This document shows, in pieces, positions 12,522-63,511 of a DNA stretch of 64,000 bases. The stretch spans positions 87,081-151,080 of the forward strand of contig CAZZAT010000001.1 of the NCBI GenBank assembly GCA_964652615.1, in the 5' to 3' direction. The position numbers were made by a program, and so were the translations under genes. A model generated the notes under the pieces. The model did no database searches. It worked only from the letters and a program-made list of their open reading frames with translations, and was not told the DNA's origin. The stretch comes from an uncultured Candidatus Saccharibacteria bacterium (lineage in GTDB: Bacteria > Patescibacteriota > Minisyncoccia > Phycocordibacterales > Phycocordibacteraceae). Every line of letters starts with the position of its first letter. Positions within the stretch are counted from its first letter, which is position 1.

Positions 12522-12866
12522 GGTTGGACTGGCACGATAAGCCGAGTTCTGTCGTGGACGACCATCTATCTAGGCGTTCGATTACTCGAACGCTCAAGCG
12601 GCGCTCCGGCATACTTCTTTCGAAATTACCGGTACGGCCTTGCACAGAAGTAAGGATTTTGCCGTTTCATTCCGGCATCGCTGCCGGCACGCTCTGCGTG
12701 AGAGCCTCTATTCTTTCGAAGTTGAGCGTTTCTGTTCGCACCTCGCGCCTTGCGGCGGACGGGTATTACCCGCTACCCATGCTCCGCACGTACGTGCGGC
12801 TGTGCTCGGACTTTCCTCAAAGCTTCTCTGTAGACAGGGAAGTTCGCGGTCGTCTGTGCCAGTCCG
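12522..12866 (-). ncRNA. rnpB: RNase P RNA, bacterial type A
   Basis: Minus strand carries the P4 motif GGAAAGTCCGAGCACAGCC and a 3' region CTAGATAGATGGTCGTCCACGACAGAACTCGGCTTATCGTGCCAGTCC nearly identical to E. coli M1 RNA (CCTAGATGAATGACTGTCCACGACAGAACCCGGCTTATCGGTCAGTT); P1 pairs GGACTGGCAC with GTGCCAGTCC. Confidence 0.85.
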
Positions 12867-19893: not shown

Positions 19894-21792
19894 ATGTCCC
19901 CAGCACCAGCTCCCGCACCCGCGCCAGGCGAACGTCCTAGCACTACCCCAAGAAGCGACCGTCCTTTCCCTCCTCGCGGCCAAGGGAATCGAGGAGATCG
20001 CCGTAGAGGCGGCAGAAACTCGCGCGATATGCGCCGCCCGATGCGCCGTGGAGGCGCTCCTCAAGGAAACGGTGCACCTGCACCAAAACGCACTGCCGAA
20101 TATATTCCTGCTCCTGTCGACGAGAAAACAGTCCGTGTCATCCCGCTTGGAGGCGTGGAGGAAGTCGGACGCAACATGTTTCTCGTTGAGACCGGCAATG
20201 ACATTTTTGTCTGCGATGCAGGCTTTCAGTTCGTATCCGAAGACTCAAACCCTGGCGTCGACTACATCCTTCCCAATACCAAATATCTTGAAGTGAACCA
20301 GCATCGCGTACGCGCGGTCATCATTACGCACGGACACTTGGACCACATCGGCGGCATCCCCTTTCTTATGGGCCGCTTCGGCAATCCCCCTATCTACACC
20401 CAGAATCTCACCGCCGTGATGATCCAAAAGCGCCAAGAAGAGTATCCGGATATGCCAAAGCTCGATGTGCGCGTGGTAGAGCCAGGATCAACGCATACCA
20501 TCGGCGATACCAAAGTGAAGTTCTTCCCCGTCACCCACTCTATTCCAGACTCTATGGGCGTTTCTATCATGACGCCGTGGGGCAATATCGTTGCAACCGG
20601 AGACTTGAAACTCGATCATGATGGTACCGTCCCAGCTGAACACGAGCAGAAGAAGTGGGGTGAAATAGGAAAAGACAATAACCTCCTCTTTATTGCCGAC
20701 TCAACAAACGCAGAGCGCGACGGCTTCTCGGTTCCTGAAAAGAAAGTGCATCAGACTTTGGAAGACATTATTAAAACTGTATCGGGCCGCCTCATCATCG
20801 GCACCTTTGCTTCCCAGTTCGAGCGCATGGTGCGCATCATCGAAGCATCTGAAAAGCTCGGCAAGAAAGTCGTGCTTGAGGGTCGTTCGATAAAGACAAA
20901 TCTTGAAATCGCACAGAAGACGGGTCTTTTGAACATCCAGAAAGACACCATCATTCCTGCACAGGAGGTTGGCGACTACCCGCCGGATAAAGTGGTTATT
21001 CTCGCTACCGGCGCACAGGGAGAGGAGTTTGCAGCCCTTATGCGTATCGCAACCAAGCAGCATAAGAGCATCACGATGAGCCCGCGCGATACCGTTGTCC
21101 TCTCTTCTTCAGTGATTCCTGGAAACGAAATAAGCGTGCAGCGTCTCAAAGACAATCTCTACCGCAACGGCGTTACCTTAATTCACTATCGCTCATCGGA
21201 TGTGCACTCGACCGGCCACGGCAACGCAGGAGAATTGGTGTGGATTAATCAGCAGGTAGGCGCGAAGTTCTTCATGCCTGCCTACGGCTACTATTCCATG
21301 ACCTCCTGCCACGCCAAAGCAGTTGAGCAAGCAGGGCGTCCGCGCGATCAGATAGTTATCGCGGACAACGGCACGGTCATCGATTTCATTGAAGGAAAGA
21401 CGATGCAGGTGCATAAAGACAAGGTGCCGTCTTCCCCGCTTATGGTGGATGGCTTTGCTATCGGCGATATGCAAGAAGTCGTGATACGCGACCGCCAAGC
21501 GCTCGCAAAGGACGGTATGTTCGTCATCATCGCAACCGTGCATTTGAAGACTGGAAAGTTGCGCAAGTCCCCTGACATCATCTCTCGTGGCTTTATTTAC
21601 CTTCGCGAGAGCCAAGATCTTCTAAACCAAGCGCGCGTTCTTATCAAAAAGACGGTTGAAGATTCGACGCAAGGCATGAACCCGGTCGACCTCGACTATG
21701 TGAAGAATCAGCTTACCGACACCATGGCGGGATACCTCTTCAGCAGGACAAATAAAGCGCCGATGGTGATACCGGTGCTAATTGGAGTCTAG
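19894..21792 (+). CDS. rnj: Ribonuclease J (metallo-beta-lactamase / beta-CASP RNase) with an N-terminal Pro/Arg/Gly-rich extension
   Basis: VRVIPLGGVEEVGRNMFLVE, the HGHLDHIGG metallo-beta-lactamase motif, beta-CASP and C-terminal domains; first ~75 aa are low complexity (MSPAPAPAPAPGERP...RGGRNSRDMRRPMRRGG). Confidence 0.9.
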   Translation: MSPAPAPAPAPGERPSTTPRSDRPFPPRGQGNRGDRRRGGRNSRDMRRPMRRGGAPQGNGAPAPKRTAEYIPAPVDEKTVRVIPLGGVEEVGRNMFLVETGNDIFVCDAGFQFVSEDSNPGVDYILPNTKYLEVNQHRVRAVIITHGHLDHIGGIPFLMGRFGNPPIYTQNLTAVMIQKRQEEYPDMPKLDVRVVEPGSTHTIGDTKVKFFPVTHSIPDSMGVSIMTPWGNIVATGDLKLDHDGTVPAEHEQKKWGEIGKDNNLLFIADSTNAERDGFSVPEKKVHQTLEDIIKTVSGRLIIGTFASQFERMVRIIEASEKLGKKVVLEGRSIKTNLEIAQKTGLLNIQKDTIIPAQEVGDYPPDKVVILATGAQGEEFAALMRIATKQHKSITMSPRDTVVLSSSVIPGNEISVQRLKDNLYRNGVTLIHYRSSDVHSTGHGNAGELVWINQQVGAKFFMPAYGYYSMTSCHAKAVEQAGRPRDQIVIADNGTVIDFIEGKTMQVHKDKVPSSPLMVDGFAIGDMQEVVIRDRQALAKDGMFVIIATVHLKTGKLRKSPDIISRGFIYLRESQDLLNQARVLIKKTVEDSTQGMNPVDLDYVKNQLTDTMAGYLFSRTNKAPMVIPVLIGV

Positions 21793-21796
21793 AGCG

Positions 21797-21824
21797 AAGA
21801 GACCGTCCGAAAGGACGGTCTCTT
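21797..21824 (+). terminator. Putative terminator hairpin after rnj
   Basis: AAGAGACCGTCC-GAAA-GGACGGTCTCTT; the U-tract is weak. Confidence 0.45.
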
Positions 21825-21850
21825 GCTATATCAGAATAAGTGTGATATAG
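21823..21850 (+). promoter_or_regulatory. Putative sigma-70 promoter (TTGCTA-N16-TATAGT)
   Basis: Hexamers at 21823-21828 and 21845-21850; Shine-Dalgarno AGGGAGG precedes the ATG at 21878. Confidence 0.5.
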
Positions 21851-21877
21851 TCATTGTGTTAGCAAGGGAGGCCGTGA

Positions 21878-22075
21878 ATGGCTACAAGCAACGCAGAGCA
21901 AGTCTTCGAGGCAATCAAGGCTATGTCGTTGGCGGAGTTTACATCTCTGCTCGACCTCCAAGAAGACCTCGAGGACTCTGCAGATGCGGGCGAACCGGTG
22001 CATGTCATCGACTCGTTCGACGGGACCCAGTTCAGCATTGCTGATATCAAGGTTGAGCTGGTTCCTCATCCCTAA
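21878..22075 (+). CDS. Small acidic hypothetical protein (65 aa)
   Basis: Own promoter, strong Shine-Dalgarno and terminator; N-terminus (EQVFEAIKAMSLAEFTSLLDL) weakly resembles the L7/L12 N-terminal dimerisation helix, but the C-terminus is unrelated. Confidence 0.5.
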   Translation: MATSNAEQVFEAIKAMSLAEFTSLLDLQEDLEDSADAGEPVHVIDSFDGTQFSIADIKVELVPHP

Positions 22076-41986: not shown

Positions 41987-43105
41987 CTAGCGGGAGCGCT
42001 CTCGAATGAGGAAGCGTAGCGTAGGGCCATCGTGCGCCATTTCGCTTTCTGTGTCGTCTGCTTCAAGTGCAGCTTCGGTAGAGAGCATCATCATTGCGGT
42101 TTCGGGAGCTGCCTGCTTTGCTGCCGGAGGACGGTTAAAGCCTACGACAACCTCCTTTTCTGTTTCGTTTGCAATGCGTTTTGCAGACGAGAGCAGCGCG
42201 CTTGCGCGGTATGCACGTTTTGCAAGCGTTTCGTATGCTTCAGAAGCCTCCTTAAAGTCGCCCTGTGCTTCCTGTTCTGCTGCAGAGGCAAACGAAGCCT
42301 CAATGTCTGCGTGCTCGGCTGCAAGCTCCGCAATGCTCTCTTTAGAAATGCCGTTTCCTGAAAGAGCCTTTTCAAGGGAAGCAAGGCTGCGCGCCGCTTC
42401 TTCTGCGCGAGCTTTTGCAATACGCTCATAGTATTCGGTAGTGCGCGCTTCGGTATAGTCGCGCTTTGGCGTATACGCTTCGTTTGAAACAGAGAGTGCA
42501 ACCGAAAGAGCACGGAGCTTTCTGCGACTCTCACTCGTCTCGTTTTCTGCCTGTGCTTCAAGTATTTCAGCGTGCGCAGAGAGCGCTGCATTCATACGGC
42601 CCACCACCTGTACTGCGCCGCCCACATCCCCTTCTTCGGTAAGTGTCTTGGCACTTTCGTTTGCTCGTTCAAGATACACCGCAACTGACTGCGTAATGCT
42701 GTCTACGGGACGCAAATCGCGCGTGCCTTTTGCAGCTAAAAGCTCTACCTCCTGAATGCGCTCTTCCGCATGGCGAATATCTACCTCTGCTTTTGCAACG
42801 GTACCAATAGCTGCAATGCGTTCAAAGCGTTCGTTTACGCCGAGCTTTACGCCATAGAGGACATCTCCAGGAAGAGCGCCTCCTGCAGTAGCGGTTGCGC
42901 CTCCTGCGACAATGGCAAGAAACAGCGTGAAAGCGAACAAGCTTCTCTGCCAAGGAAATGCGTGCATGTAGGGAGAAGCGTGGCGTACAGGAGGAGCAGG
43001 TTCAAAAGAAGGCGCCATGAACGCTTCGCGCATGCGCGAACGCTCCTCATCAGAAAGGACGAGGTCGTGGCGGAGCACTTTGAAGCTGTCTTTGAAATCA
43101 GTCAT
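41987..43105 (-). CDS. Putative membrane-anchored anti-sigma factor (DUF5667-like coiled-coil protein)
   Basis: Immediately downstream of and overlapping the ECF sigma gene by 8 nt; a cytoplasmic N-terminal segment, one TM helix and a long helical extracytoplasmic region. Confidence 0.5.
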   Translation of the reverse strand: MTDFKDSFKVLRHDLVLSDEERSRMREAFMAPSFEPAPPVRHASPYMHAFPWQRSLFAFTLFLAIVAGGATATAGGALPGDVLYGVKLGVNERFERIAAIGTVAKAEVDIRHAEERIQEVELLAAKGTRDLRPVDSITQSVAVYLERANESAKTLTEEGDVGGAVQVVGRMNAALSAHAEILEAQAENETSESRRKLRALSVALSVSNEAYTPKRDYTEARTTEYYERIAKARAEEAARSLASLEKALSGNGISKESIAELAAEHADIEASFASAAEQEAQGDFKEASEAYETLAKRAYRASALLSSAKRIANETEKEVVVGFNRPPAAKQAAPETAMMMLSTEAALEADDTESEMAHDGPTLRFLIRERSR

Positions 43106-43610
43106 GGTTTTCTATGTTGAGCGCAATGCGTGCCTTCTCAAGGCCGCGCTTCACGCGTACGGAAATGGTGTTGGGACGCTCGCCCAGAAGCCCTGCAATC
43201 TCCCCTATCGAAATACCTTCCACAAGATGGAGCATGAGCGCTTCGCGATACGGATCCGAGAGGCCTTGCACAGCATTTAGGAGAATTCTTCCTTCAGCGG
43301 AGAGCGTCTCATCAGAAGTGCCTGGAATATTCTCCATCACGCCTTCGGGAAGATCGCGCGCAAGGACTGGTTTCTTCTTTTTGTAATAGTCCTTGATCAA
43401 GTTGCGTGCAACGGTAAAGAGAAAGGCGCGCAGGTTTTCTATTTCTGCCTGCTCCTTTCCAAGACGTTCCCAGACGCGCGCAAACGCTTCTTGGGTTAGG
43501 TCTTTCGCTTCATCGCGAGAGCCGGTCTTTGCGTAGCATAGGCGGAAGACCGAATCGGCGTGCGAGTCGTAGACTTCGAGGAACTCGTGCTGTGAAGTGG
43601 CACTCTGCAT
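43098..43610 (-). CDS. ECF-type RNA polymerase sigma factor (sigma-70 regions 2 and 4)
   Basis: Region 2 FLEVYDSHADSVFRLCYAKTGSRDEAKDLTQEAFARVWE and region 4 HTH (EGISIGEIAGLLGERPNTISVRVKRGLEKAR). Confidence 0.85.
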   Translation of the reverse strand: MQSATSQHEFLEVYDSHADSVFRLCYAKTGSRDEAKDLTQEAFARVWERLGKEQAEIENLRAFLFTVARNLIKDYYKKKKPVLARDLPEGVMENIPGTSDETLSAEGRILLNAVQGLSDPYREALMLHLVEGISIGEIAGLLGERPNTISVRVKRGLEKARIALNIENHD

Positions 43611-43741
43611 ATGCTAACGATTCAGTATGCCGTATATGACTAGAGGTGGTAAAGGGTGGACGACGGGCACGGGGTGTAGACGAGTGAAGTATGTAGGCAT
43701 GACAGTATCATCTCCTGTCCTAGATGAAGCGGTAATGAAGG

Positions 43742-44242
43742 TCACGCGGCGAGATAGTGCCCTGCAAGCACCCCTACCGCTATCGCAACTCCGCCCACAA
43801 GCGCCATACGAAGAGCGCTTTTGATGTAGCCCGTGCGCGAGAAGCGTGCGCTGATAAGTCCGAGCACCCCGAGCGCCACAAGAGATGCGGCAATAGATGC
43901 TGGAAACGCAACTGAAACAGGAAGAAGAAGGTACGGAAGGAGTGGAATGAAGCCTGAGAGTGCATAGGAGACGAGCATAATGAACGCTGCGCGGACCGTT
44001 CGGTCCGATCCTCCATTGGTGTGCGTCTCGTACTCTTCGGCAGACGACTCCGAAAGAAAACTGCCTGCCGCCATAGAGACCGCTTCGACAAGAATGAGTA
44101 TCAAGCCTGCGGTAAATATTTCTTCGCGCCCAAGGCCCGCAATAGCAACGCCTGATACGAGACCAACCGTTGAAACAAGACTGTCTTCAACGCCAAAGAT
44201 GAAATTTCTGAAGTATGCGACCTTCGCTTTCTCGAGCGCCAT
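43742..44242 (-). CDS. VIT1/CCC1 family iron/manganese transporter
   Basis: VIT signature FGVEDSLVSTVGLVSGVAIAG... with 4-5 TM helices. Confidence 0.72.
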   Translation of the reverse strand: MALEKAKVAYFRNFIFGVEDSLVSTVGLVSGVAIAGLGREEIFTAGLILILVEAVSMAAGSFLSESSAEEYETHTNGGSDRTVRAAFIMLVSYALSGFIPLLPYLLLPVSVAFPASIAASLVALGVLGLISARFSRTGYIKSALRMALVGGVAIAVGVLAGHYLAA

Positions 44243-44275
44243 GTGCGTACTAGTATACCGCGAGAAAGGATGTCT

Positions 44276-44307
44276 TCTTGGTTGTCTGGGACGTAGTTGG
44301 AACCTTT
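44276..44307 (+). repeat. Island motif copy 1 (degenerate)
   Basis: CTTGGTTGTCTGGGACGTAGTTGGAACCTTTC versus consensus GCTGGCTGTCTGGGACGCTGTTGGAACCTTTC. Confidence 0.8.
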
Positions 44308-44336
44308 CATAAGAGCTTTCCTCACCTCAGAAGACC

Positions 44337-44365
44337 TTGACAGGAGTATGCGAGTGTGATAGTAT
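44337..44365 (+). promoter_or_regulatory. Sigma-70 promoter (TTGACA-N17-TAGTAT), 29 nt downstream of motif copy 1
   Basis: Consensus -35 at 44337-44342 and TAGTAT at 44360-44365. Confidence 0.6.
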
Positions 44366-44371
44366 GCTCGA

Positions 44372-44625
44372 GCCCTAGCGATGTCGGCACTCGGGTTGAA
44401 ATAAGTGCTGACTCTGCGGGAGTGCGTTTCGCTGCACCCCGTGGATTCGAAAGCGATGCATCTGTCCGGACGCGAGCACGAGCGTAACCGGCAGAGAAGA
44501 GCTCTTTAACCCCGGGAGCATTGCGTCTCCCTCAGACAGAATATTCAACCGTGCGGTTTGTTTTGAGCTGTAAACCGGCCTTAGGGCCAGAGCCCCGGAT
44601 CTCTCAGGAGACTCCGGGGCTCAAA
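44372..44625 (+). ncRNA. Candidate ~250-nt non-coding transcript (promoter to hairpin, no ORF)
   Basis: Lies between the promoter above and the 10-bp hairpin GAGCCCCGGA-N13-TCCGGGGCTC (44590-44622); GC-rich with multiple internal helices; the only ORF is a 62-aa read-through artefact. Confidence 0.4.
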
Positions 44626-44660
44626 CTTTACATCTTCGATAACGCCTCTTTTTCAGAAAT

Positions 44661-44692
44661 GCTGGCTGTCTGGGACGCTGTTGGAACCTTTC
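44661..44692 (+). repeat. Island motif copy 2 (consensus)
   Basis: GCTGGCTGTCTGGGACGCTGTTGGAACCTTTC. Confidence 0.85.
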
Positions 44693-44697
44693 TGAAT

Positions 44698-44725
44698 TTG
44701 ACAAAATAGTATTTATATGTAATAT
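44698..44725 (+). promoter_or_regulatory. Sigma-70 promoter (TTGACA-N16-TAATAT), 5 nt downstream of motif copy 2
   Basis: The -10 context ATTTATATGTAATAT nearly duplicates the copy-4 promoter. Confidence 0.6.
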
Positions 44726-44799
44726 GGGTACGGGTACCGAAACCATCCGAGCGATCACAGTCTTTGGTGCCCCTGTGTACGTTCGGTTTGGAGAGTGAA

Positions 44800-45219
44800 A
44801 TGACTATTGAAAATACGGTTGTTGAGACTGACCTCAATACGCTGTTTAGCGAACTCGCGCTGAATCCGAAAGAGTGGATTTTTCCTTTCGAAAAAGCCTT
44901 TGCGGGCGAATCGGAAGAGAGAATGGGAGGGAGACACCACGTCTCCGGTTTCGGGTTCATCACGGCAGATGGACATCATATTGGCCTCGGCGACGTAACA
45001 GTCGTCAATACAGCCCTGCTCGTCCGTCTCACCGGACTTCGTCATCAGCGCCAGCATCGCTTCATTGCGCTAGCCTGCAAGGCTATGCACACAGCGAAAG
45101 CGCGAGTGCTTGAGGTGAAGGTACGTTGGGGTACAGAAACAGTTCGCCGCATTCGCTTTGAACTTGGTGAAGAAGGCGGCGGGTACTGGCTCGACAACCT
45201 GACGATTTCACTCGTCTAG
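44800..45219 (+). CDS. Island orphan protein P1 (139 aa)
   Basis: Shine-Dalgarno GGAGAG before ATG at 44800; no recognisable domain; terminator hairpin GGGCGTGGC-TGTAAT-GGCCACGCCC with U-tract follows at 45228-45270. Confidence 0.55.
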   Translation: MTIENTVVETDLNTLFSELALNPKEWIFPFEKAFAGESEERMGGRHHVSGFGFITADGHHIGLGDVTVVNTALLVRLTGLRHQRQHRFIALACKAMHTAKARVLEVKVRWGTETVRRIRFELGEEGGGYWLDNLTISLV

Positions 45220-45284
45220 TTTGTGTGGGGCGTGGCTGTAATGGCCACGCCCTATTCATTTTTCATGAATACTATAGTTAGCGT

Positions 45285-45312
45285 GCTGACTGTCTGGGAC
45301 GCTGTTGGAACC
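45285..45312 (+). repeat. Island motif copy 3
   Basis: GCTGACTGTCTGGGACGCTGTTGGAACC, sandwiched between two terminator hairpins (45228-45270 and 45318-45345). Confidence 0.8.
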
Positions 45313-45317
45313 GAAAC

Positions 45318-45345
45318 GAGACACGCCACCCTAGCGGGTGGCGTG
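45318..45345. terminator. Bidirectional intrinsic terminator
   Basis: ACACGCCACCC-TAGC-GGGTGGCGTGT followed by AAATCAAGTTTTTATTTT on the plus strand. Confidence 0.6.
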
Positions 45346-45349
45346 TAAA

Positions 45350-45586
45350 TCAAGTTTTTATTTTCCTCACAGAAGCGTCTTGTGCAATCTTATGAGGCTC
45401 CATATAAGGAGTATTCCAGCGTAGCGGGCAGAGTCCGTAGTCTTCCACCTCCTCTGGCTCGGCACCGGTGAAGCGGTCAAAGCAGAAGGCGGCTGTTTCA
45501 GAGCATTTCTGATACAAGACGCCTTCTTCTGCATCGTCCGAAAGCATGAACACGTCGTTCTTCCGCAGCTGTTTGAATGTCAGCAT
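45350..45586 (-). CDS. Island orphan protein P2 (78 aa, acidic, four Cys)
   Basis: Shine-Dalgarno GGAG 9 nt upstream; no recognisable domain. Confidence 0.5.
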   Translation of the reverse strand: MLTFKQLRKNDVFMLSDDAEEGVLYQKCSETAAFCFDRFTGAEPEEVEDYGLCPLRWNTPYMEPHKIAQDASVRKIKT

Positions 45587-45630
45587 GGCGTTTACTCCGT
45601 TTCTCTAGGAGCAAGATATCATGAATTGTC

Positions 45631-45660
45631 GCTGGCCGTCTGGGACGCTATTGGAACTTT
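45631..45660 (+). repeat. Island motif copy 4
   Basis: GCTGGCCGTCTGGGACGCTATTGGAACTTT. Confidence 0.8.
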
Positions 45661-45687
45661 TTGTAGGAATCTTATATTTACTGGATA

Positions 45688-45715
45688 TTGACAATATATA
45701 ATATTTATGTAATAT
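45688..45715 (+). promoter_or_regulatory. Sigma-70 promoter (TTGACA-N16-TAATAT), 27 nt downstream of motif copy 4
   Basis: Consensus -35; the -10 context ATTTATGTAATAT nearly duplicates the copy-2 promoter. Confidence 0.6.
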
Positions 45716-45762
45716 AGTAGTGGGTTACTTTGCACCCATCAGTCAACCAGGGAGAAATCACC

Positions 45763-46332
45763 ATGACTGACGGCATCAAAGCGCACGTCAAAATCGAACA
45801 GCATCCCAACCCGAAAATCCGCGACTTTCACGTAACGTGCGAAGTCTCGGCAATTCGTGGCATCTATGGGTTCGGCGAAAATGAAATGATGAACTTCGGG
45901 GAAAAGAGCCCCGGCGACCTCGCCGAGACGCTTGCGAAGAAGCTCATGACCATCCCCGGCGTTACCGGAGGCAACTTCAAACGCTACGAGGTCCGTGTCG
46001 ACATTAGCGACGCGTTCAGCTGGCAAGACGTTGGGCCGTTGGTGCTCGGGGAGATTGTGAAAAATCTCTTTCCGGAAACCAACGGCGCCACGATTGACAT
46101 CAGCACTCGTATCGGATGGAGCTACTTCGTCCGACCCAGTCCTGCCTACGATTTCATGGGCGAGGACGACGACGGCCACCGGACACGCTACGTGGACATG
46201 GTGAATCGTCAGGCGGTTGAGGTGAAGTTCGGCTCCGGCCGACCCATCCTCGACGTCGAACATCTGTTCGGTTCTGAAGCCCTGACCCAAGCCAAAGCGA
46301 AAGCTGCGGCCGAGGTTGTGATCGAAGACTGA
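45763..46332 (+). CDS. Island orphan protein P3 (190 aa)
   Basis: Shine-Dalgarno GGGAGA before ATG at 45763; no recognisable domain; terminator AAGCCCCGTAG-GAAAC-CTACGGGGCTT with U-tract follows at 46351-46385. Confidence 0.55.
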   Translation: MTDGIKAHVKIEQHPNPKIRDFHVTCEVSAIRGIYGFGENEMMNFGEKSPGDLAETLAKKLMTIPGVTGGNFKRYEVRVDISDAFSWQDVGPLVLGEIVKNLFPETNGATIDISTRIGWSYFVRPSPAYDFMGEDDDGHRTRYVDMVNRQAVEVKFGSGRPILDVEHLFGSEALTQAKAKAAAEVVIED

Positions 46333-46386
46333 CGTGCGTATATGCACCTTAAGCCCCGTAGGAAACTACGGGGCTTTTGTATTTAT

Positions 46387-46418
46387 GCTGGCTGTCTGGG
46401 ACGCTGTTGGAACCTTTT
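46387..46418 (+). repeat. Island motif copy 5 (consensus)
   Basis: GCTGGCTGTCTGGGACGCTGTTGGAACCTTTT, beginning directly after the P3 terminator U-tract. Confidence 0.85.
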
Positions 46419-46457
46419 GGACACATGTGGTAGGGTCTGTCCAGAACTAAGGAGGCG

Positions 46458-46739
46458 ATGATGCCAATCAAACATGTGTTCGAGAAGATCAAAGAGCTTA
46501 CACCTGCAGGCATACAGGGAGGTGAGGTCGTTCTGGAAGACGGGACTAAGTTCCGCCTTCCGGTCGAAGCCAGCCTAGAATACGGCCTCTTGCGAGTAGG
46601 CTACAGCGTCCTGCTCGATTTCGATCACTACGAAGACACCAACATCATCTATATGCATGTCTTCCGTCTCGGCAGGCATGTCACTAATCTGGGTTTCGAT
46701 CGTGAAAATGTTCCAATCGAATCACCGGTTCTTGCTTAA
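46458..46739 (+). CDS. Island orphan protein P4 (93 aa)
   Basis: Strong Shine-Dalgarno TAAGGAGG before the ATG; no recognisable domain; terminator GGCGGTCA-GAAA-TGACCGCC with U-tract follows at 46748-46774. Confidence 0.55.
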   Translation: MMPIKHVFEKIKELTPAGIQGGEVVLEDGTKFRLPVEASLEYGLLRVGYSVLLDFDHYEDTNIIYMHVFRLGRHVTNLGFDRENVPIESPVLA

Positions 46740-46846
46740 ACCAAACAGGCGGTCAGAAATGACCGCCTTTCTTTATGCTGGCATTTTAGGATTCGAACCT
46801 ACACTTGTGTACCTCTTGGGGACAGCTGTTTTGCTAGCCTTGAGGC

Positions 46847-47440
46847 ATGCGCGCAAGCACCCAACGGCTGTTATTTGATACCGGAACCTCACTTCCAAAC
46901 GGATTGGTGTATCGTCCCGATTTCATTACGGAAGAAGAGGAAGCGGAGCTTTTAGGATACTTTACCGATTTGCCCTTCTCGCACTCACGGCTCGGGGAAT
47001 ACATAGCGAAGCGGCGGGTCATAGGGTTCGGGTGGGGATACGACTTCCGCGAAAGAAAGCTTATTCCTGGACCACCTCTTCCGCCCTTCCTACAGCCGCT
47101 TCAAAGAAAGATAGCGAAGTGGCTTGATATACCCGTGTCACGTGTCGCTGAAGCGCTGATTACGGAATACCCTGCAGGAACAGGCATCGGCTGGCATAAG
47201 GATAATGAAAAGTTCGAACATATCGTCGGCGTATCTCTTGGAAGCTTTGCAACGTTCAGACTGCGCCCGCTCTCGCCTCGCACGAGAAGAGCGAAGCGCA
47301 ATCCAAGAGAGGTCGTGAGTATTTCGGTTGAGCCTCGAAGCGCGTATCTTATGCAAAAAGCTGCACGTCATGACTACCAGCACTCTGTGCGCAAAGTAGG
47401 GGCGCTTCGCTACTCTATTACCTTTCGCACACTTCCCTAG
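46847..47440 (+). CDS. alkB: Alpha-ketoglutarate-dependent dioxygenase AlkB (oxidative DNA/RNA demethylase)
   Basis: N-terminal LFD...LPNGLVYRPDFITEEEE, Fe(II)/2OG ligands IGWHKDNE...H...RYSITFR. Confidence 0.75.
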   Translation: MRASTQRLLFDTGTSLPNGLVYRPDFITEEEEAELLGYFTDLPFSHSRLGEYIAKRRVIGFGWGYDFRERKLIPGPPLPPFLQPLQRKIAKWLDIPVSRVAEALITEYPAGTGIGWHKDNEKFEHIVGVSLGSFATFRLRPLSPRTRRAKRNPREVVSISVEPRSAYLMQKAARHDYQHSVRKVGALRYSITFRTLP

Positions 47441-48879
47441 CCAAGCGCGAGCGTGTCATCGATACGTATCTTTGCGACAAATTCAGGAACGTGCGACACC
47501 ACAACCATTGCGCCCTCGTATGTATTGAGTGCTTCTGCAATGACCGGCAAGTGTCTGAAGTTTATATGGTTCGTCGGCTCATCAAGAAGCAGGAGGCCCG
47601 GACGAAGCAGGACGAGTTGCGCGAACGCAACGAGTCCTTTCTGACCTTCAGAGAGCGTGCCTACTTTGTTTTTCATGAGGTCGGCGTTCAAAAGAAAGCC
47701 CGCTGCAACGCTTCGCAGTCGCTCTTCGTCGGGTTTTTTCATAACAGAAGCAAGCGCTTCGTAGACAGTGTGCGAGAAATCAAGAGTCGAAAAGTCTTGG
47801 CGGTAGTAGCCGACGACAACGCCGTTTGCGATAGCGGTGCCTTCATTTCTTGCAATAGACTCAAGCAGCGTGCTCTTGCCGATGCCGTTTGGTCCTGAAA
47901 GAAGAAGGTGGGTGTTTTTCTTCAAACGCACCTCGACCTTCTTCTTCGAGGGCTTATGGTTTCGTACGACCTGCACCTCATCAAGCGAAAGAAGCACGCC
48001 GGTTAAATCAGGCTGCGCCGGAATGATAAAGGGGCGGATGGTCTTGTCTTCTTTGCGCACATCTACCTTCTCCTCTTCCATTTCCTCTACCTTGGCGCGC
48101 ATCTTTTTTGCAACGACACGCATCTTACCCCCCTTCTGGGCGAAAAAGTTCGCCTTGTCCTTATTCTCCTGTATTTCTTTGGCAAGCTGCGCATTCTTGC
48201 GGTTCTCGCGCTCGATACGCGCCGCAATATCCTTCACCACATCATGATACGTGCCGTTGTACTGCTCTATCTTCTTCGTGTACGCGTCGAGGTAGAGGAC
48301 GCCGTCTGAAAACGAGTTCAGAAATTCCGCATCGTGGGAAATCACGAGGCAGGTTTTCTTATATCCCTTCAGAAAATCAGTAAGATGCTCTATGCCCTCC
48401 GCATCAAGGTTGTTAGTGGGTTCGTCGAGAAGCAAAAGATCGGGGTTCTGGATGAGCGCGCTTGCAAGCAAAAGGCGCGCTTGCTGGCCGCCTGAAAACG
48501 AACGTACTGTTCTTTCAAGCGGAGCTTTGAGATGCACGACCTCGAGCACCTCTGCTATGCGCTTCTCGATGTCGTATATCTTTTCCTTGAAGCAGGCCTC
48601 GAAAAATTGGAGGATGGTGTTATCAAGCCGCTCGCGCGGAACTACTTGGGACGCAAGCGCGATGCTTGTTCCTTGGGCAATGAGCACTCTGCCGCCTTCT
48701 GGAGTGTAGGCGCCCGTGATGAGATTCAGTATCGTGCTCTTGCCTGCACCATTCTGCCCCATGATGGTGACTTTTGCGCCGCGACGCACCGAAAAATCCA
48801 CTTCGTCGAGAAGCGGCTTTGAGGGATGGTATTCGAAGCTAACGCCTTCGAAGCGCACGAGGGTGCTTTCTCTCGACAT
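47437..48879 (-). CDS. ABC-F family ATPase (two tandem ABC domains, no TM domain)
   Basis: Two Walker A sites (GQNGAGKST and GPNGIGKST), two LSGGQ signatures and an inter-domain linker. Confidence 0.85.
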   Translation of the reverse strand: MSRESTLVRFEGVSFEYHPSKPLLDEVDFSVRRGAKVTIMGQNGAGKSTILNLITGAYTPEGGRVLIAQGTSIALASQVVPRERLDNTILQFFEACFKEKIYDIEKRIAEVLEVVHLKAPLERTVRSFSGGQQARLLLASALIQNPDLLLLDEPTNNLDAEGIEHLTDFLKGYKKTCLVISHDAEFLNSFSDGVLYLDAYTKKIEQYNGTYHDVVKDIAARIERENRKNAQLAKEIQENKDKANFFAQKGGKMRVVAKKMRAKVEEMEEEKVDVRKEDKTIRPFIIPAQPDLTGVLLSLDEVQVVRNHKPSKKKVEVRLKKNTHLLLSGPNGIGKSTLLESIARNEGTAIANGVVVGYYRQDFSTLDFSHTVYEALASVMKKPDEERLRSVAAGFLLNADLMKNKVGTLSEGQKGLVAFAQLVLLRPGLLLLDEPTNHINFRHLPVIAEALNTYEGAMVVVSHVPEFVAKIRIDDTLALG

Positions 48880-52918: not shown

Positions 52919-54013
52919 ATGGGAAATCAAAAACTACAGAAAATCGTCTCTTCTACTCTTTTTGATAGAAGAAAATCAAATAAAAGCGGTTCTTTCACTA
53001 TGATTGATCTGTTCGCAGGAATAGGAGGGATTCGTCTTGGTTTTGAAAGTATTGGGGGTGAATGTGTCTTCACTTCTGAATGGGACGAATCTGCAAAAAA
53101 AACATACCAAGCAAACTTCTCGGAGATACCCTACGGAGATATCACTCAGATAGCTCCAGAAGATATTCCATCTTTCGATATACTTCTTGCAGGCTTTCCA
53201 TGTCAGCCCTTCTCTCAAGCGGGAAGAAAACTCGGACTTGCAGATACACGTGGAACGCTATTCTTTGATATTGCCAAAATTGTTGAACACCATAAGCCAA
53301 AAGTAGTATTTCTTGAAAATGTAAAAAGGTTCAAGAGTCATGATGGAGGTAGGACTTTCAAAACTATTACTTCCATTCTTGAGGATTTTGGATACGAGAT
53401 ACATGCCAAAGTGCTCAATGCGAAAGATTTTGGAGTTCCTCAAAATAGAGAAAGAATCTATATCATAGGATTCCTTGGTAAAACGAATTTCTCTTTCCCA
53501 AAACCGTCCGGTAAGCAAACGTTATTGGGAGATATCTTGGAACAGAAACCCGATGATAAGTATACGATTTCTGATACTCTCTGGGCCGGACACCAAAGAA
53601 GGAAAAAGGAACATTTGGAGAAAGGAAACGGATTCGGATACTCCCTCTTCGATAAGAAATCCCCCTATACAAGTACGATTTCTGCACGATACTACAAAGA
53701 CGGCTCTGAAATCCTTATAAAGCAAAAAAAGGGAAACCCCAGAAAACTTACTCCTCGTGAAGCTGCCCGCCTCCAAGGTTTCCCAGATTCCTTTATTGTC
53801 TCAACAAGCGATACACAAGCATACAAACAATTCGGGAATAGTGTTGCCGTACCTGTTATAAAAGCACTCGCTAAAGAAATCAAAAAAGCTTTACTGGACA
53901 TGGAGGTCGCTTCTGGTAAGGCACAATCTATCAACTTAGACAAACTACGAGAAACGAGCGTACAGGAAGCGAGAAAGAGTATCCCTTCTCGATTAGTAGG
54001 AGTCAGTCACTAA
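52919..54013 (+). CDS. DNA (cytosine-5)-methyltransferase (type II modification enzyme)
   Basis: Motif I DLFAGIGG, motif IV GFPCQPFS, motif VI ENV and motif VIII QFGNSVAVP; low-GC coding region. Confidence 0.9.
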   Translation: MGNQKLQKIVSSTLFDRRKSNKSGSFTMIDLFAGIGGIRLGFESIGGECVFTSEWDESAKKTYQANFSEIPYGDITQIAPEDIPSFDILLAGFPCQPFSQAGRKLGLADTRGTLFFDIAKIVEHHKPKVVFLENVKRFKSHDGGRTFKTITSILEDFGYEIHAKVLNAKDFGVPQNRERIYIIGFLGKTNFSFPKPSGKQTLLGDILEQKPDDKYTISDTLWAGHQRRKKEHLEKGNGFGYSLFDKKSPYTSTISARYYKDGSEILIKQKKGNPRKLTPREAARLQGFPDSFIVSTSDTQAYKQFGNSVAVPVIKALAKEIKKALLDMEVASGKAQSINLDKLRETSVQEARKSIPSRLVGVSH

Positions 54014-54781
54014 AGAATCCCAATACTTATTATCTGCACGCCAATTAGCATACGGACGTGCGTTCCCATCATACATACCACTATCGAAAAAGATGATGCC
54101 TTTTCGAACGCCGTCAATCCATGTATTGAACGTAATGGGATTACCAAAAACTATCTTTGTGTAAACTCCATTCGCATCTTTTTGACATTTAAACCAACCT
54201 AGTTTGTTAAATTTGTCCTCAACGCGCTTTTTCATCATCTCTGCCTCCCAGACAGCAAGTATGAGGTTATCCTTCTGGAGTGGTCGTGGTACGATTTTTT
54301 GTTTATTTGGACGTTGATCTTTAGAATATGAATAGACAGCATAGATAGTTCCTTGTGCATCAACTTTCAGTTTTTGACCAAAAGAATTCCACTTATTAAT
54401 TTTTGGCGCCGGTTTCCCTGACCAAGAGTATCTATTTTCTTTTGATGAATTCGGAGCTCCGAAAATCATCAAGAATTTCTTTCGGTCGAGATTGTATTCA
54501 TTTCCTTTTCTATAGATCCGCAATTTTGCACTCGGAGACCAATCACCGAAAGTGGTTTTGCTTGTGGTGTTGTTTTTCATCTCAAATCCATCAAGATCTG
54601 GCGCGTTCCTGCCGTTATGTTTTATTCCCATTTGTTTTTCAAGCCAATGACCACCCTTGCCATCATGAGATACATGGGCCTCTGATGTATCAGGGACTTT
54701 GCCTTTCACTTTCTGAATGAAAAGCTTAACTATTCTCCGCTTAATCTGCGCAGAGGTCTCTTTCTTGATGGACTTTGCCAT
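53993..54781 (-). CDS. Putative type II restriction endonuclease partnering the m5C methyltransferase
   Basis: Convergent and 3'-overlapping (21 nt) with the methyltransferase gene; Lys/Asp/Glu-rich 262-aa protein with no other assignable function; low GC. The ORF-track start at 54799 is a TTG; ATG at 54781 (MAKSIKK) is preferred. Any resemblance to ScrFI/LlaMI-type enzymes is from memory only. Confidence 0.5.
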   Translation of the reverse strand: MAKSIKKETSAQIKRRIVKLFIQKVKGKVPDTSEAHVSHDGKGGHWLEKQMGIKHNGRNAPDLDGFEMKNNTTSKTTFGDWSPSAKLRIYRKGNEYNLDRKKFLMIFGAPNSSKENRYSWSGKPAPKINKWNSFGQKLKVDAQGTIYAVYSYSKDQRPNKQKIVPRPLQKDNLILAVWEAEMMKKRVEDKFNKLGWFKCQKDANGVYTKIVFGNPITFNTWIDGVRKGIIFFDSGMYDGNARPYANWRADNKYWDSLVTDSY

Positions 54782-54838
54782 ATACGGCGATGGTAGCAAA
54801 TATCTAAGAAATCGCCCATGGGAGCGATTTCTTAGATA

Positions 54839-63230: not shown

Positions 63231-63511
63231 AGCTCACTGTATGGCTTAGCCAATAACAGTGGCGGGTAACACAAAACCCGCCACCAGAGAGGAGCCTTAC
63301 GGACATCCCCTACCAGGGTTTCCCCTGATAACACAACGAAGGCCCTGATGACGGGTTTTCTATCTTCGTTGTGTTTTTAGACCATGCCCGAGGAATCCCT
63401 CGAGTTTAGGTCCTGCCCATTACAGGCCTTTATTCAGTTGTAGTCCTGTGATGCCCAGAAAGGCACCACTTCTAAAGTGTAGCCCAAGATGGTTCCTGCG
63501 CGAAGAGGGGT

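Follow-up and report, generated by a model that had tools for sequence, protein, structure and literature searches.

The stretch of DNA that was analysed (the window, 64,000 nucleotides) carries, at 44264-46800, an array of small genetic units set between ordinary chromosomal genes. The left flank is formed by genes for VIT1, an ECF sigma factor, a DUF5667 protein and an RND pump, and the right flank by genes for an AlkB-like oxygenase, an ABC-F protein and an M23 peptidase. Between them, six direct copies (r1 to r6) of an asymmetric motif of ~35 nt, TTGCTGGCYGTCTGGGACGATGTTGGAACCTTT, which lie within 44275-46800, delimit five cassettes (A-E) with start-to-start distances of 346-756 bp (Table 1). 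Five of the copies are good matches and the sixth is decayed, and no comparable repeat array was found in the remaining ~60 kb of the window. The array was identical in the Logan assemblies of three sequencing runs and, therefore, is not an assembly artefact; the Logan contigs of the array break at the repeats, and contig L001 ends within r2.

The subject of this work is the first unit, cassette A (44366-44625, hereafter unit A), for which a sequence-only reading of the window had proposed a structured non-coding RNA gene occupying the slot where the other cassettes carry a protein gene. The arrangement is as it had been described, and it proved to be the most informative context for the unit: unit A lies between copies r1 and r2, and each of the next four inter-repeat units holds one ORF. 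Shine-Dalgarno sequences are present at cassettes B, D and E. None of the four cassette proteins (B-E) belonged to a family in Pfam above threshold, in PHROGs with an assigned function or in NCBIfam. The ORF of cassette B (44800-45219) has a strongly atypical codon score (-0.43 versus +0.24 for host genes), which fits either a foreign origin or doubt about the ORF itself. No recombinase or integrase was found among the 28 ORFs scanned at 31-64 kb. The sequence GGATTCGAACC in r6 had raised the suspicion of a tRNA fragment or att site, which was discarded, as neither ARAGORN nor Rfam detected a tRNA there and the sequence is homologous to that upstream of the AlkB-like gene of a relative. Elsewhere in the window there are four tRNA genes at 4.5-13.5 kb and, at 52919-54799, convergent genes for a C5 cytosine methyltransferase and an LlaMI/MvaI-type restriction endonuclease in a low-GC island (41-42% versus 52%), which probably constitute an acquired restriction-modification system.

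Table 1. Features of unit A and of the cassette array, in positions of the window.
Feature	Position	Strand	Basis
Motif copy r1 (core 44279-44303, TGGTTGTCTGGGACGTAGTTGGAAC), left boundary of unit A, adjoins the divergent VIT1 start	44275-44309	+	Repeat search
Sigma-70-type promoter, TTGACA-17-TAGTAT with TG extension	44337-44365	+	Promoter scan, 10/12
Predicted non-coding transcript, ~254 nt	44372-44625	+	No ORF, Rfam or six-frame protein match
Predicted closing helix, GCCCUAG (44372-44378) with 44581-44587, 7 bp, enclosing the multibranch body	44372-44587	+	MFE and centroid folds
Hairpin 1, 9-bp stem GUCGGCACU/AGUGCUGAC, 12-nt loop CGGGUUGAAAUA	44383-44412	+	Predicted fold
Long irregular hairpin, ~124 nt	44413-44536	+	Predicted fold
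Terminal stem-loop, 10 + 4 bp, without U-tract	44590-44622	+	Sequence and fold
Motif copy r2 (core 44663-44687), right boundary of unit A	44659-44693	+	Repeat search
Cassette B: promoter TTGACA-16-TAATAT, 139-aa ORFan (44800-45219), hairpin and T-run terminator (45225-45255)	44698-45255	+	
Motif copy r3 (core)	45287-45311	+	
Cassette C: 78-aa ORFan	45350-45586	-	
Motif copy r4 (core)	45633-45657	+	
Cassette D: promoter, 189-aa ORFan (45763-46332), terminator	45688-46376	+	
Motif copy r5 (core 46389-46413) with extended promoter-like 3' part CTTTTGGACACATGTGGTAGGGTCTGTCCAGA	46389-46450	+	
Cassette E: 93-aa ORFan, terminator	46458-46768	+	
Decayed sixth motif-like copy r6 (GCTGGCATTTTAGGATTCGAACC), right end of the array, 5' of the AlkB-like gene	46776-46800	+	

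The promoter that had been postulated upstream of unit A could be recognised as a near-consensus sigma-70 promoter matching 10 of 12 positions, with TTGACA at 44337-44342 and TAGTAT at 44360-44365 separated by 17 nt, and with a TG extension one base 5' of the -10 element. When the region 43000-48000 was scanned, six promoter-like sites were obtained versus 3.0 +/- 1.7 in shuffled sequences, and the three sites in 43-48 kb reaching 10/12 are each located 5-29 nt 3' of a motif copy. With respect to the repeat, the promoter of unit A is placed as are those of cassettes B and D, and it shares its style with these two and with the promoters of motif-adjacent cassettes in other CPR loci. Unit A has, in this respect, the sigma-70 promoter upstream that is looked for in an sRNA gene. 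We infer that unit A is transcribed from this promoter; the transcript would start 7 nt after the -10 element and would end just past the stem-loop.

The earlier statement that unit A holds no credible ORF was also borne out, since the ~250 nt after the promoter contain only short ORFs on either strand. On the plus strand, an ORF of 43 aa begins with GTG 5' of the likely transcription start, another GTG ORF, of 34 aa, has no Shine-Dalgarno sequence, and a TTG ORF of 62 aa continues through the hairpin and the next repeat; on the minus strand there is a 57-aa TTG ORF. With the exception of the one reading through the hairpin and repeat, all plus-strand ORFs 3' of the promoter have at most 43 aa. 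With a codon score derived from 19 long genes in the window, the log-likelihoods of all six frames of unit A were negative, the best being -0.007 compared to +0.010 for the 5th percentile of true frames. Cassette B scores badly too, so the codon test has little power where cassettes are foreign. No Pfam family was matched by the open segments in any of the six frames, and a six-frame concatenated query against 5.8 billion protein clusters gave no match at E <= 1. A frameshifted or split protein-coding gene spanning the region, the finding that would have spoken against the sequence-only reading, was not observed, and a hidden or frameshifted gene was rejected on these six-frame negatives in Pfam and the protein clusters. 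Neither an ORF nor a coding signal nor translated similarity marks unit A as a protein-coding gene or pseudogene.

At the 3' end of unit A, the hairpin that had been reported was found as a perfect 10-bp stem formed by GAGCCCCGGA (44590-44599) and TCCGGGGCTC (44613-44622) and capped by an inner 4-bp UCUC/GAGA stem. The sequence after the hairpin is AAACTTTACATCTT (AAACUUUACAUCUU) and not a T-run, and the terminator scan made no call for it; hairpin and T-run terminators were called at the ends of the three plus-strand protein cassettes (B, D and E). Unit A lacks the combination of GC-rich stem-loop and U-tract that is looked for in an intrinsically terminated sRNA gene. The whole 260-nt region folds at -112.6 kcal/mol (z = -4.39), and none of 200 dinucleotide shuffles was as stable. 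Compared to a background of 200 windows of 260 nt from the same sequence, which gave a mean z of -0.64 (sd 1.33) with 3% below -4, this value places unit A in the top 3% or so of windows. For comparison, the windows containing the LOOT RNA and the RNase P RNA gave z-scores of -5.9 and -2.9, respectively. The minus strand of the whole region also reached z = -3.49. Without the terminal hairpin, the remaining body of unit A yielded z = -2.56 on the plus strand, with 4 of 200 shuffles as stable, and a similar value of -2.29 on the minus strand. Much of the fold stability of unit A is that of the terminal hairpin, and the structural signal of its body is modest and not strand-specific.

The two known RNAs used for comparison are the LOOT RNA match at 63291-63412 on the minus strand (79 bits versus a gathering score of 46), which is among the strongest fold z-scores in the window, and a bacterial class A RNase P RNA at 12522-12865, also on the minus strand (125 bits). 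A 260-nt window at 21761-22020, in the gap between two long ORFs, gave z-scores of -5.6 and -4.8 on its two strands, stronger than those of unit A.

In the predicted fold of unit A, the 5' and 3' ends of the body are joined by the closing helix listed in Table 1, an arrangement that would be RNA-like. The long-range complementarity that had been pointed out between CGGGTTGAAA (44392-44401) and TTTAACCCCGGG (44506-44517) does exist, but only imperfectly (4+2+3 bp, interrupted by a bulge), and it has no part in the minimum-energy fold; the loop of hairpin 1 could alternatively pair, imperfectly, with this same segment at 44506-44517 or with UUCAACCG farther 3'. The proposal of a structured non-coding RNA is upheld in part. 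The promoter, the stem-loop and the absence of an ORF stand, whereas the signal of the body is modest and alike on both strands, the hairpin has no U-tract and no homologue was found.

That unit A resembles no known RNA family, as had been stated, was checked with the cmscan comparison that had been recommended: searching 44200-44800 against Rfam 15 gave nothing at gathering thresholds, and with lax filters at E <= 10 the region of unit A returned only noise of at most 17 bits. In this region, Rfam matches to 6S, SRP and tmRNA, riboswitches, HEARO and omega RNAs, raiA, ROOL and LOOT were all lacking. Homologues were not found either. Neither nhmmer nor blastn detected any in 773 kb of motif-bearing CPR loci, and a covariance model (R1) built from the single sequence of hairpin 1 and the long irregular hairpin (44383-44536) recovered only itself from 870 kb of related Patescibacteria loci. 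No second unit A was detected by blastn within the window, nothing similar was present in the syntenic relatives (L228/L229 and L230), and loci with homologues of cassette D had no homologue of unit A. No match was obtained in phages and plasmids, nor in viral contigs with a 30-mer search, and a search of JGI metagenomes with one 20-mer produced a single 21-nt chance match on an unrelated contig.

Unit A is absent from the closest syntenic relatives retrieved, with VIT1 proteins 77% and 74% identical, and, therefore, is not a conserved housekeeping RNA of the 6S, SRP or RNase P class. An IS110-type bridge RNA or an omega RNA was also discarded; the neighbours of unit A are VIT1 and small ORFans, and no DEDD, TnpB or IscB match was found. 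As to pairing between unit A and the mRNA of cassette B, a 22-nt inverted match of 73% was comparable in quality to a dozen other chance pairs within 5 kb and was rejected.

The comparison with relatives shows how the contents of this locus vary. Among the relatives on contigs long enough for comparison, L228/L229 have the most similar VIT1 (77% identity) and retain the divergent AlkB-like gene as well as the VIT1-sigma-DUF5667-RND block. The space separating VIT1 from AlkB (7520-8000 in L228) holds a lone 72-aa gene that is unrelated to the cassettes of the window and is flanked by decayed motif-like sequences aligning with r1 and r6 of the window; r6 is homologous to the sequence upstream of AlkB in L228. 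In L230 (VIT1 74% identity) the array is absent. A homologue of cassette D, 49% identical, was found on JGI contigs L238-L240 (3854-4732) with a motif copy on each side in the same orientation as in the window, and its context, with a methyltransferase gene on one side and the ATP synthase operon on the other, is unlike that in the window. Three other homologues of cassette D had no detectable motif. These observations fit motif-bounded units being units of gene turnover, which may proceed by recombination at the motif.

The motif itself is widespread. Its conserved block reads TTGC-TGGC[C/T/A]GTCTGGGACGA[T/A]GTTGGAAC-[C/T]TTTnT, and the flanks are unrelated. A 25-position pattern, for which ~0.3 chance matches were expected, was found in 106 stretches of GTDB species-representative genomes (L122-L227), almost all of them Patescibacteria MAGs, the hosts comprising Paceibacterota, Kaiser-, Nomura-, Wolfe- and Berkelbacteria as well as MAGs labelled Saccharibacteria. 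A profile search of the motif loci gave 133 exact-pattern and 135 near-exact copies, including five window copies. They often form same-orientation arrays of up to six or more copies, which delimit ORFan units of ~350-900 bp, and copies on one contig mostly share one orientation. The 132 inter-motif units present in 69 loci have a median length of 537 bp and mostly contain one small ORF each, in mixed orientation relative to the motif (77:45); ~7 of the 132 are short units without an ORF. Cassette contents are almost never common to two loci, the recurrent neighbours of the motif are housekeeping genes, and recombinase families were not enriched within ~4 kb of the 106 loci. In our literature search, no description was found of the motif sequence, of CPR cassette arrays or of CPR intergenic motifs.

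In most copies of L122-L227 (50 versus 8; e.g. L144, L155, L199 and L205) both flanking genes lie antisense to the motif. Read as its reverse complement, the motif begins 0-17 nt past a stop codon and is followed by a TGnTATAAT promoter located 6-8 nt 5' of the next ATG, a proximity that suggests leaderless transcripts. In ~10% of the copies, r5 included, an extended -10 element is located exactly 13-14 nt after the core, with TTGGAA as the -35 element, followed by unrelated genes. Members of this extended subclass (46389-46450 in the window; L123, L139, L147, L165, L189, L195, L206, L207, L210 and L216) have the 3' extension CTTTnTGCAACATATGsTAGGTTCTGTCCAGA, which is partly an inverted copy of the motif; this extension puts an extended -10 element 17-18 nt away from TTGGAA, and a Shine-Dalgarno sequence comes next, ahead of entirely unrelated genes. 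From its sequence, the extended subclass looks like a portable promoter module.

Other explanations for the motif were considered and rejected. The role of a fixed -35 element holds only for the ~10% of copies with the extended -10 element. By inspection, it is a poor fit to sigma-54, ECF or LexA-type sites, and it lacks the dyad symmetry of a dif/Xer-like site. As an RNA structure it has no significant fold (z = +0.7 to -0.1), hairpin formation being confined to the extended subclass. The strict 25-nt pattern is absent from viral contigs, and the 120 matches to a 17-base core fall almost all in one phage C5-methyltransferase-like coding sequence (VWDDVGTFDGRPWRG). In these viral loci (L002-L121) the core is the coding sequence of VWDDVGTF in an abundant phage gene of this type, with the match running a few bases past the pattern. 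Since the flanks are unrelated, we regard this match as a coincidence.

Among known systems, the array invites comparison with integron cassettes, including ORF-less cassettes and integrase-less CALINs. Like these, it consists of small units of variable content, mostly ORFans, set between direct repeats of a site. The contents at this locus are not those of the closest sampled relative, a minority of the array units lack an ORF, and one gene family (cassette D) turns up between copies of the site in another genome, at a different locus. The differences concern the site and the cassettes. The motif has 35 nt and is asymmetric and nearly invariant, whereas attC is an imperfect palindrome of 60-140 nt with R''/R' boxes; the inverted RYYYAAC ... 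GTTRRRY boxes of attC are not present in the motif, in which GTTGGAA fails at the final Y, and only ~10% of the motif copies have an inverted partner. Unlike integron cassettes, those of the motif arrays carry their own promoters and terminators, and their ORFs show the mixed orientation given above. A linked intI tyrosine recombinase was not found among the 28 ORFs at 31-64 kb and was not enriched near the 106 loci.

The motif also resembles REP/BIME-like repeats in being short, exclusively intergenic and present in several copies per genome, but it is not palindromic, has no significant fold, is conserved across many lineages instead of being restricted to one species, and delimits variable units of gene size. 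Unit A, for its part, shares with autonomous bacterial sRNA genes a promoter, a ~250-nt body with paired ends and a stable 3' stem-loop, and differs from them in lacking a U-tract, conservation in relatives and a known family. The order of promoter, non-coding RNA, hairpin and small protein gene (cassette B) is also that of type III toxin-antitoxin systems. However, cassette B belongs to no Pfam, PHROGs or NCBIfam family, and a type III antitoxin RNA was rejected since unit A has no tandem repeats and a motif copy and an independent promoter precede cassette B.

The interpretation that we tentatively prefer, while granting it somewhat less than an even chance, is that unit A is an accessory cassette without an ORF, specific to the strain, from which an orphan non-coding RNA is probably expressed. 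Unit A would belong to a motif-bounded array that sits, as an insertion, between VIT1 and the AlkB-like gene of a Patescibacteria (Paceibacteria-like) genome. It has a strong sigma-70 promoter of its own, as its protein-coding neighbours do, and would be transcribed from it. The product would most likely be a non-coding transcript of ~250 nt in which pairing of the 5' and 3' ends closes a multibranch body and which ends in a very stable stem-loop, that is, a strain-specific small RNA of no known family, acting in trans or otherwise autonomously. This presumes that unit A has a function at all and that RNA rather than DNA is its functional product.

The main rival, to which we assign a smaller but appreciable likelihood, is that unit A is a decayed or empty cassette, either what is left of a protein-coding cassette or spacer DNA acquired along with the motif; a promoter and a hairpin would have been kept, but any transcript would be functionless. 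Unit A is an orphan missing from the closest relatives retrieved, and the structural signal of its body is modest and equal on both strands. Moreover, cassette contents are nearly all ORFans with rapid turnover, so that a dead ORFan could no longer be recognised by protein homology, and the decayed motif copy at the end of the array shows that decay does happen at this locus. Against this, the promoter has stayed close to the consensus and the hairpin retains its perfect 10 bp, no frame has an open stretch longer than expected by chance, codon usage is poor in all frames (as it is, likewise, in cassette B), and the closing helix between the 5' and 3' ends suits a designed RNA better than debris.

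Because the hairpin has no U-tract and was not called as a terminator, it is also plausible that transcription reads through the hairpin and r2 into cassette B, which lies 175 nt 3' on the same strand, in which case the 250 nt would be a long structured 5' leader or no more than an outward-firing promoter module. We consider this improbable, since cassette B is provided with a 10/12 promoter (44698-44725) and a Shine-Dalgarno sequence of its own, a full motif copy separates units A and B just as it separates independent cassettes, and no riboswitch or leader family was matched. Least probable of all is that the short plus-strand ORFs 3' of the promoter include a gene for a very short protein, e.g. 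the 17-aa MHLSGREHERNRQRRAL or the 34-aa GTG ORF, given that none of them is preceded by a convincing Shine-Dalgarno sequence, unlike the ORFs of cassettes B, D and E, has homologues or has a positive codon score.

Taken alone, the orphan non-coding RNA that we tentatively prefer for unit A would be one more unvalidated orphan sRNA candidate, of limited weight. The motif arrays are the more novel observation and may mark an undescribed cassette-array system. A bolder interpretation, which we hold to be a long shot, is that the motif is the recombination site of an undescribed, Patescibacteria-wide cassette-capture system and that unit A is a cassette with a functional non-coding RNA as cargo; such a system would be integron-like in its outcome and would differ from integrons in its asymmetric site, its self-expressed cassettes and the lack of a linked integrase. 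If this were true, the cargo of such arrays would extend to RNA genes. In a broader context, these reduced and little-understood bacteria keep hotspots of small, individually expressed ORFan cassettes with fast turnover, delimited by one nearly invariant 35-nt sequence across many lineages. If the motif is a recombination site, it would provide a handle on how ultra-small symbiotic genomes gain accessory functions, and RNA-only cassettes would belong to that accessory pool.
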